Shown here one piece after another: positions 28,487-31,252 of a stretch of 64,000 nt of DNA. The notes under the pieces were generated by a model. It was not told where the DNA came from, searched no databases, and was given only the letters and a program-made list of their open reading frames with translations. The stretch lies in contig CM000155.2 in NCBI GenBank assembly GCA_000004695.1, forward strand, positions 928,001 to 992,000, written 5' to 3'. Each line of letters opens with the position of its first letter. Position 1 is the stretch's first letter. A program made the translations under genes and the position numbers. Source of the stretch: Dictyostelium discoideum. Taxonomy: Eukaryota.

Positions 28487-28622
28487 ATTGTTATTGTTGT
28501 TTAGAAGTGACTAACGAAAAAAAAAAATAAAAAATTATTCAATTTAGCCATTTTATACTAACTTTTTTGGTTTTTTTTACGAAAAAAAAATCAAATTTTT
28601 TTAATTTTTTAAAAATTAAAGA

Positions 28623-28661
28623 AAATAAATGCCCGGCGTAAAAAAAAAAATAAATGCCCGG
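28623..28661. promoter_or_regulatory. Duplicated AAATAAATGCCCGG box 137-175 bp upstream of the rpl3 ATG
   Basis: Two exact 14-nt copies (28623..28636 and 28648..28661), separated by an A-run, in an otherwise nearly pure A/T promoter region. Confidence 0.35.
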
Positions 28662-28817
28662 TTTAAAAAAAATATTATTATAAATTTAAAAAAAAAAAAA
28701 AGTGATTCGCTAATATATATTTTTTTTTTTATTTTTTAAAAAAAGAGATTGGCTAATATGTATTTTTATTTTATTTTTTATTTTTAAATAAATGTTTAAC
28801 TAAAATTTAATTATATG

Positions 28818-28856
<39 letters not shown>

Positions 28857-29079
28857 AAATCTTTTTTTTTTTTGACTATTTTTAATTTCCAATAAAACAT
28901 CTAAAAATAAATAATTACTTTTTTTAAAATACCCATAGTTTAAATCTCATTCAAATTGAAAAAAGAGTAAAATTTAAAAATTTAAAAGAAAATAATAAAA
29001 ATAACCCTTTTCAAGCTTTTGTTAATCAAATTCAAATTTTAACTTGTTATTCTCAATTTTTTTTTTTTTCCACTAGTAA

Positions 29080-29119
<40 letters not shown>

Positions 29120-29399
29120 CAATTAAAACTTTGGTTAATAAAAATGGAACTATTCAATTAAATAACACTCTCTAGATTCTCATTATTTTTTCAATACAAA
29201 TTTCAAGTGATAATATCAGAATCAATCCAATCATCTCAAATTAATAATATTCTGGTAAATTTTTAATTTTTTTTTTTTTTTTTTTTTTTAAATTTTAAGT
29301 TTTAAAACCAATACATTTTTAAACAATATAGAGTTATTAGTTTATATTGGATGTAACAAATAATTGTGATATGGTAATTCCAGAAGTTAAGAAAAAAAA

Positions 29400-29435
<36 letters not shown>

Positions 29436-30090
29436 AATAAAAATAGATAAATAAATAAGCAAAAAAAAAATGGTTTAAGAAGAGTATTTTTATTGAATAT
29501 CGTCTTCTGAGACTTTTTTTTTATTCGAAAGACTATAAATGATATTTAACTTTAAAAAAAAAAAAAAAAAAAAAAAATTGAAAAATAAAATAAAGATTAT
29601 ATAAAAAAAAAAACTCTTAGGAAACGATATTCACTAAAATTACTCTTCTTAAAACATTTTTTTTTGTTTATTTATTTATCTATTTATTGATTAATCTATT
29701 TTTAAATTTTAATAATTATTTTTTTTTTTTTTTTTTTTTTTTAATTTTTTTTTTTCCTTACTTCTAAAATTCCCATACCACAAAAATAAACCATTTTCAA
29801 CAAACTTTTGTTAATCTAATTCTCATTTTCTTCAAAATTATATTGATTTGTAACTTCTAAAAAGTTTTGAATTGTTTTAAGGTTGCCATTATTGAGTACA
29901 GGAGCATGTCCGATAACACTACCTAAGCCGAATTGCAGCTGTATGGTTTAGCATTATGATCAATGAGTTTAATGAGAGATAATTTCAAAAAAACTCCATT
30001 AATAAATAATTCACTTGGAATTTTGGGAACCTGAATTCCTTTTTGCTTATAACTGGAAAGCAATAATCTTAAAGGTATTGATGGGAGACT

Positions 30091-30245
30091 ATAACAGTAT
30101 TATCGTTGATGTATTCTTGATATCTAATATAACCAATTTCCTCCAATTTATATTTACTACAATTGGTATTGATCACAAGTAAATATAAATTGGAGGAAAT
30201 TGGTTATAATAGATATCAAGAATACATTAACGATAATACTCATTG
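30091..30245. repeat. Long imperfect inverted repeat / hairpin (~68-nt arms at ~94% identity, ~20-nt loop)
   Basis: The left arm ataacagtattatcgttgatgtattcttgatatctaatataaccaatttcctccaatttatatttact and the right arm agtaaatataaattggaggaaattggttataatagatatcaagaatacattaacgataatactcatt are reverse complements. They sit in a GC-normal segment with no ORF of 60 aa or more. Confidence 0.85.
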
Positions 30246-30644
30246 GAGATTTATCCACTTGGGTGGATTACTAATAAATGATGGGATTGACTCCTTATCA
30301 TTTTATTTAATTTTATATCATATATAAATGATTTTAATGTGATATTACCAGATTCAACAGCTGGAAACGAGTGATATAGAAATTCTATTTCTTCACCTGG
30401 AGTAGGAATTTGATTTCTTGATAGAAAAAAATCAATGAATGTAAGAAGTAAGCTTTAACTTTTTCTTTAAATAATTTGACGAGCCATAAAAAACAACAAA
30501 TAACAAATAATTAAAGAAATAAACTTACTTTTAAAATGAATGTAATATAATATAAATATAATTGGAAAAAAAATTGAAAACAAATTAAAGAAAAACAAAA
30601 TTAATTTTTTAAAAAAGTAAGGGTGGTTAGATATTAAAGTTTTA

Positions 30645-30674
30645 GCCGCATAAAATTAATTAATTTTATGCGGC
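30645..30674. repeat. Perfect 13-bp stem / 4-nt loop hairpin GCCGCATAAAATT-AATT-AATTTTATGCGGC
   Basis: Direct reading of the sequence. GC-containing palindromes are rare in this AT-rich intergenic DNA. Confidence 0.8.
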
Positions 30675-31252
30675 GATGGTGGGTTTGTCACATCATTTTT
30701 TTTTTTTAATTATTTTTTTTTTTTATTTTCTATGCGACTGCCCTTTTTAAAACATAATGAAAATAAAATAAAAAAAAATATTGGTTTTAAATAAGAAATA
30801 ATAATGATAAAAAAAAATTATAAAAAAAAATAAAAAATGTGTAAATTTTATTTTTTACTCCTAAATTTAGTTTTTATCATAATTTTTTTTATCATATTCA
30901 TAAATAACTAACTGATGTTTATTTAAATTTGGATATTTTTTTTTTTCATATCTCAACCTATCTTATGAATATGATCTTTTCATAATTCGAAAGTTGTTCA
31001 AAAAAGTGCGAAAAATTTGATGATTGGAATAAATAGCCAATAATAATAATAAAAAAAAAAAAAAAAAAAAATTAAAAAAAAATTAAATAAAAAAAAAAAA
31101 ACCAAATGGGAACCTGGTTAAAAAATTGATTAAGAAGGTGTTGAATTATAATTAATCAATGAAGATGGTAAATAAATTTGAAAAATTAATGAATGAAATG
31201 AATTTTATTTCTTTTTAAAATATTTTTTTTTTTTTTTTAAAAAAAAAAAACT

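Follow-up and report, generated by a model that had tools for sequence, protein, structure and literature searches.

What is encoded, if anything, in a long stretch of non-coding DNA that lies between two housekeeping genes of Dictyostelium discoideum and carries a prominent hairpin? The stretch in question is the 2.7-kb interval 28505-31252 of a 64,000-nucleotide (nt) sequence (GenBank assembly GCA_000004695.1, contig CM000155.2, positions 928,001 to 992,000), which in its entirety is referred to here as the window. A previous inspection of the letters alone, hereafter the sequence-only reading, had pointed to a GC-richer island within this interval and to an inverted repeat inside the island, and had favored a structured RNA or microRNA (miRNA)-like precursor over the alternative of a structure at the end of a foldback or terminal inverted repeat (TIR) transposon. 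We find, with a probability that we estimate at about 95%, that the hairpin and the surrounding island are the published and experimentally validated miRNA gene ddi-mir-1185, located on the minus strand. The locus is therefore already known: its small RNAs, strand, Dicer dependence and primary transcript have all been described in an earlier study (Liao, Kjellin, Hoeppner, Grabherr, Soderbom 2018, RNA Biol 15:937; PMC6161686).

The inverted repeat consists of two 63-nt arms (30096-30158 and 30178-30240) that are 96.8% complementary and enclose a 19-nt loop (30159-30177). Position x pairs with position 60336 - x; 61 of the 63 positions are paired, the two mismatches fall at 30108/30228 and 30127/30209, and the stem is free of bulges. 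The sequence-only reading had placed the repeat at 30091..30245 with bulged arms of ~68 nt and ~94% identity; the hairpin it described is real, but the stem is both shorter and cleaner than proposed, and extending the arms to 30091-30245 (68 nt) lowers complementarity to 91%, with four of the five added positions unpaired. RNA folding, which had been suggested as a check, places the hairpin region far beyond chance, at -90.8 kcal/mol for the plus strand (z = -19.6) and -85.2 kcal/mol for the minus strand (z = -15.5) against about -27 for shuffled sequences, none of which (0/200) folded as well. More specifically, the 143-nt minus-strand precursor at 30097..30239 folds at -82.4 kcal/mol (z = -18.5). 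This corresponds to -0.58 kcal/mol/nt, compared with the value below -0.2 kcal/mol/nt, with both small RNAs on opposite arms, that is expected of a miRNA hairpin; the 5p and 3p species of mir-1185 do lie on opposite arms of this stable structure.

The identification was obtained by searching 16-mers from the hairpin arms in the supplement of PMC6161686. The match is to Supplementary Fig. S2, in which the sequence labeled ‘miRNA: mir-1185’ is the reverse complement of window positions ~30077-30259 and is displayed with stacked small-RNA reads. Table S1 of the same paper lists mir-1185 on chromosome 6 at DDB0232433:958097-958239, minus strand, in the class ‘Intergenic’, which coincides with 30097..30239 when 928000 is subtracted from the chromosome position to give the window position. 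The mature 5p and 3p sequences each match the window exactly at one place, on its minus strand. The sequence-only reading had left the strand open; the small RNA is made from the minus strand. Under this one offset the 5p, the 3p, the strand, the hairpin span and a T-rich motif described below all agree exactly with the published gene. Because two independent coordinate pairs agree on the same offset, the window can be assigned to chromosome 6 of D. discoideum AX4. The precursor as machine-read from the supplement has a few bases dropped or added relative to the window; the sequences given in the tables are exact.

The small RNAs reported for this hairpin (Table S1 and Fig. S2 of PMC6161686) bear on how it is processed. 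The dominant mature miRNA, mir-1185-3p (TATCAAGAATACATCAACGAT, 30102..30122, minus strand), starts with a U and is represented by 880-882 reads, and the minor strand, mir-1185-5p (CGTTAATGTATTCTTGATATC, 30212..30232, minus strand), by 47-48 reads. As expected for a miRNA gene, the two form a duplex that is paired at most positions, with one C:A mismatch (30108/30228, on the transcribed strand) and 2-nt 3' overhangs at both ends; such overhangs are the signature of an RNase III cut. On the loop side, the first pair is directly adjoined by two further minus-strand read clusters in Fig. S2, one on the 5p arm (TCTATTATAACCAATTTCCTCC and variants, 30213..30192, ~50 reads) and one on the 3p arm (GAGGAAATTGGTTATATTAGA and variants, 30143..30123, low counts). 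The abutting positions of these clusters fit successive 21-nt cuts proceeding from the base of the stem to the loop, and the authors themselves note that the mir-1185 stem yields another 5p/3p pair, of lower precision.

Accumulation of these RNAs depends on the Dicer-like protein DrnB. In the drnB knockout, total mir-1185 reads decrease from 1017 in wild type to 82, and those of mir-1185-3p from 880 to 6; on a northern blot, mir-1185-3p is visible in wild type and absent or very weak in drnB- (PMC6161686). In the same study, the level of mir-1185-3p drops about twofold between 0 h and 16 h of development (13.6 versus 7.3 reads per million). The first choice of the sequence-only reading, a structured RNA or miRNA-like precursor, proves right: both arms give 21-nt reads, these depend on DrnB, and a northern signal is reported.

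Several points nevertheless weigh against the assignment to a miRNA gene. In PMC6161686, at least 50% of the reads on each arm are required to share a common 5' end. According to the published counts (Table S1), 5'-end precision is 95% for the 3p arm and 39% for the 5p arm, the latter falling short of the threshold set by the paper itself; the authors ascribe the low precision of mir-1185-5p to the second, overlapping duplex. Some reads also persist in drnB-, for example AAATTGGTTATATTAGATATC with 26 reads, and the published accounts report no target, Argonaute association or phenotype for mir-1185. The lack of an Rfam family counts against the assignment as well. At the gathering threshold Rfam returned no match in the whole 64-kb window, where no tRNAs were found either, and at E-values up to 10 the interval retrieved only generic long-hairpin plant MIR models far below threshold (MIR8565, 60.9 bits versus 136; MIR7127, 34.9 bits versus 100). 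Finally, ddi-mir-1185 is missing by name from the accessible part of the supplementary tables of a stricter re-survey (Edelbroek et al. 2024; PMC11014262), tables that give no coordinates to which cluster names could be matched; the re-survey itself acknowledges that it failed to recover some of the D. discoideum miRNAs described earlier.

Some of these observations would also be expected if the locus were a young source of hairpin-derived small interfering RNAs (siRNAs), a proto-miRNA that arose by a recent local inverted duplication and from which Dicer-type enzymes release phased, partly imprecise 21-mers with no evolved target. Such an origin would give a near-perfect stem like the one found here (61 of 63 pairs), two adjacent duplexes with imprecise 5p ends (39%), and reads in other registers that remain in drnB-. 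It would also agree with the missing name in what is accessible of the stringent 2024 tables, and with the report that D. discoideum miRNAs except mir-1177 are without conservation in D. firmibasis (PMC11014262). We consider it improbable, however, in view of the fact that the 3p alone accounts for 880 of 1017 reads at 95% 5'-end precision, and that it depends on DrnB and gives a signal on a northern blot. The dominance and precision of the 3p, its DrnB dependence and the northern signal are the operational properties of a miRNA, and the distinction between hairpin-siRNA and mature miRNA is, for mir-1185, a matter of classification.

The absence of transcription together with an absence of conservation had been named beforehand as an outcome that would undo the case for a gene. 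One half of this applies: the locus is transcribed and processed, whereas mir-1177 is reported to be the only D. discoideum miRNA conserved in D. firmibasis (PMC11014262). The protein and contig collections that we searched have a bearing on how such comparisons can be read. Because the best match to the protein of the neighboring gene at 31253-31744 (minus strand) in a collection of 5.8 billion proteins is only 60% identical, with no dictyostelid named among the matches, these protein collections are apparently without Dictyostelium; the source genome and its close relatives thus appear to be missing from the protein and contig collections alike, which bounds both the paralogue and the synteny tests. 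Within these bounds, synteny via the Arc1p-like neighbor yielded no orthologous intergenic DNA, the matches being without a named dictyostelid, and the exact 21-mer of mir-1185-3p had no match (0) in metagenome contigs. An exact 21-mer from the arm core matched five times in metagenome and prokaryotic genome contigs, each time in GC-rich bacterial coding DNA. We rejected these matches as relatives; the similarity stops after 27-29 nt and is attributed to chance. Within the 64-kb window, neither target-like sites nor paralogues of mir-1185 were found.

The mir-1185 hairpin is embedded in a longer transcript. Table S3 of PMC6161686 gives a predicted primary transcript, pri-mir-1185 (DDB0232433:957768-958754, minus strand), of 987 nt and 25.6% GC, corresponding to window positions 29768..30754; its span was predicted from the coverage of poly(A) RNA sequencing. 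A T-rich putative promoter or start motif, the 27-mer ATTTTTTTTTATTTTATTTTCATTATG, is listed at DDB0232433:958753-958779 and has an exact match on the minus strand at 30779..30753, precisely where the 928000 offset puts it, ending in the predicted start G (30753). The 5p follows the predicted start at a distance of 521 nt, and another 334 nt separate the 3p from the predicted end. When the whole transcript is folded, the miRNA stem remains intact.

By analogy with mir-1176 and mir-1177 (PMC6161686), mir-1185 would be transcribed by RNA polymerase II and its transcript capped. From work on these two miRNAs and on DrnB and RbdB, one would expect the stem to be diced by the nuclear DrnB-RbdB complex. 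The 3p strand, with its 5' U, would then, again by analogy, be loaded into an Argonaute, and the loaded mir-1185-3p would act on complementary mRNAs. The parallel with mir-1176 and mir-1177, which serve as the models for Dictyostelium pri-miRNAs, extends to an intergenic position, a T-rich motif that immediately precedes the start and has G as its last base, DrnB dependence and a longer primary transcript that can be selected by its poly(A) tail (PMC6161686). Unlike for these two, the start and end of the mir-1185 transcript are predicted from read coverage only, and the 5p lies farther from the start (521 nt, versus 281 and 116 nt in the model pair). Furthermore, group 4 dictyostelids share mir-1177, whereas no conservation is reported for mir-1185. 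In giving rise to two adjacent 21-nt duplexes, the long stem also resembles the long, sequentially cut precursors of plants as well as miRNA-offset RNAs (moRs) from animals, with which it has no sequence relationship. The authors draw this comparison for mir-1180 and mir-7102 (PMC6161686); the mir-1185 pattern is similar but less clean.

The primary transcript also accounts for the island. GC content is 28.5% in 29870-30480, compared with 14.8% in 28505-29869 and 16.6% in 30481-31252, so the contrast with AT-rich flanks that the sequence-only reading had described is borne out. The island, which has no strand of its own, lies wholly within predicted pri-mir-1185 and is the body of this non-coding primary transcript. 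Pfam, HMMER and a dinucleotide-shuffle test of stop-free runs gave no coding signal in 29870-30480. The statement that the interval 28505-31252 contains no open reading frame (ORF) of 60 amino acids (aa) or more is likewise correct, the longest ORFs with ATG, GTG or TTG starts being 55, 54, 46 and 43 aa.

A GC content of this order could instead mark a decayed protein-coding gene or exon that acquired a short inverted duplication, much as miRNAs are proposed to be born from their target genes in plants, in which case the parent family would be the target. The value of 28.5% is indeed within the range of exons in the window, mir-1184 in the same paper sits in a pseudogene exon (PMC6161686), and in terms of codon usage (log-odds trained on the window) the minus-strand frame at 30270-30420 is coding-like, a weak signal. 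A 67-aa stop-free frame also exists at 30254-30454 (minus strand). Frames between stops in 28505-31252 reach up to this same length, however, and dinucleotide-shuffled sequences have equally long ones (P = 0.24); none of seven stop-free frames (0/7) has a Pfam match, and the 64-kb window contains no paralogue and no target-like site of the kind a parent would offer. The two marks of a pseudogene that were looked for, translated homology and depletion of stops, were thus not found, in protein collections apparently lacking Dictyostelium, from which a lineage-specific parent would escape. We regard descent of the island from a coding gene as unlikely.

The 67-aa frame had a candidate homology of its own. 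An exhaustive HMMER search against 1.84 billion representatives returned five matches, headed at E = 2e-14 by a bacterial protein with DUF7507/DUF11 repeats; the frame holds TPGEEIEFLYHSFPAVESGNITLK, which resembles the motif PG..I.Y.F....GN.TL of DUF7507/DUF11 immunoglobulin-like repeats. The score is made up of one 26-residue motif matched 7-18 times at ~23 bits per copy. The E-value is inflated by near-identical repeat units, and we judged the resemblance to be due to chance.

The palindromic structure of the hairpin likewise invites the reading of a foldback or TIR transposon remnant, whose small RNAs would be siRNAs engaged in transposon silencing. This has a general precedent in D. discoideum, where siRNAs from DIRS-1 and other repeats are abundant and some miRNA loci lie within thug-S elements (PMC6161686). 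At mir-1185, however, the hairpin matches only itself in the 64-kb window, the first bases flanking the arms do not repeat each other, and no transposase or reverse-transcriptase signal was detected by Pfam in any frame of the island. The paper classes the locus as ‘Intergenic’ and treats it as one unique gene, which was kept after multicopy thug-S loci had been excluded. The response to loss of DrnB differs too: small RNAs from repeats other than DIRS-1 rise in drnB- and those from DIRS-1 are about equal, whereas mir-1185 reads fall more than 10-fold (PMC6161686). A transposon origin is thus very improbable, and the alternative offered by the sequence-only reading, with no second copy in the window and no Pfam match in any frame, finds no support.

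Next to the mir-1185 hairpin, the interval contains a second and longer inverted repeat, very AT-rich, at 29364-29783 (420 nt). Its arms (29364-29522 and 29605-29783) are separated by an 82-nt spacer and are identical at 144 of 158 aligned positions (91%) with three indels. Folded as RNA, it reaches -136.6 kcal/mol (z = -14.4). At its outer right edge, it overlaps with pri-mir-1185 at the latter's predicted 3' end (29768). Possible roles are those of a termination or 3'-end structure or of another source of hairpins or small RNAs; it could also be a neutral local duplication. Closer to the other end of the transcript, a perfect 30-nt palindrome (GCCGCATAAAATTAATTAATTTTATGCGGC, 30645..30674, unstranded, self-match at 100% identity) with GC-rich stem ends lies in the 5' part of pri-mir-1185, ~80 nt past the predicted start; when the entire transcript is folded, it adopts a stem of 13 bp. 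Both palindromes are absent from the supplement to PMC6161686.

A direct repeat was also observed in this part of the interval, with copies of 44-48 nt at 28997-29040 and 29782-29829 that share 79% identity (AAAAATAACC..TTTTGTTAATC.AATTC..ATTTT). The copy at 29782-29829 adjoins the 29364-29783 palindrome at its right arm. The two copies resemble each other only weakly, and in AT-rich DNA this could have arisen by chance.

As regards the origin of the gene, mir-1185 would in one scenario be a very young miRNA near its birth, and the 420-nt palindrome would share its transcription unit as a further hairpin; we hold this combination to be doubtful. The birth itself could be explained by a local inverted duplication of ~63 bp inside an intergenic unit that was already transcribed, between housekeeping genes on the same strand, and this unit was possibly a former exon. 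Neither the birth of a young miRNA nor a role of the 420-nt palindrome is addressed in PMC6161686 or PMC11014262.

The two genes that border the interval both lie on the minus strand, and the labels of the sequence-only reading for them, rpl3 and an Arc1p-like gene, agree with Pfam. The ribosomal protein L3 gene at 26937-28055 matches Ribosomal_L3 (PF00297, E = 1e-148), and the gene at 31253-31744 encodes a tRNA-binding domain (tRNA_bind, PF01588, E = 7.5e-32), a match which, judged by domain content, fits an Arc1p/AIMP1-like protein. The mechanically delimited L3 ORF (372 aa) is covered by the Pfam model over residues 1-290 only; its tail is hydrophobic and of low complexity, and has the look of read-through beyond the coding exon, not of genuine protein. 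Upstream of the L3 gene, in AT-rich DNA, we further noted a short direct repeat ATAAATGCCCGG at 28625-28636 and 28650-28661, and another, G(T/A)GATT(C/G)GCTAATAT, at 28702-28716 and 28745-28759. These GC-containing words (28625-28661 and 28702-28759) might be rpl3 promoter elements.

The value of this analysis as a discovery is very small, the mir-1185 locus having been published in 2018. Its value lies in calibration: a real miRNA gene was flagged from raw sequence by a GC-richer island together with a long, near-perfect hairpin. For the biology of D. discoideum, the target of mir-1185, its Argonaute partner and its origin are questions of modest, specialist interest.

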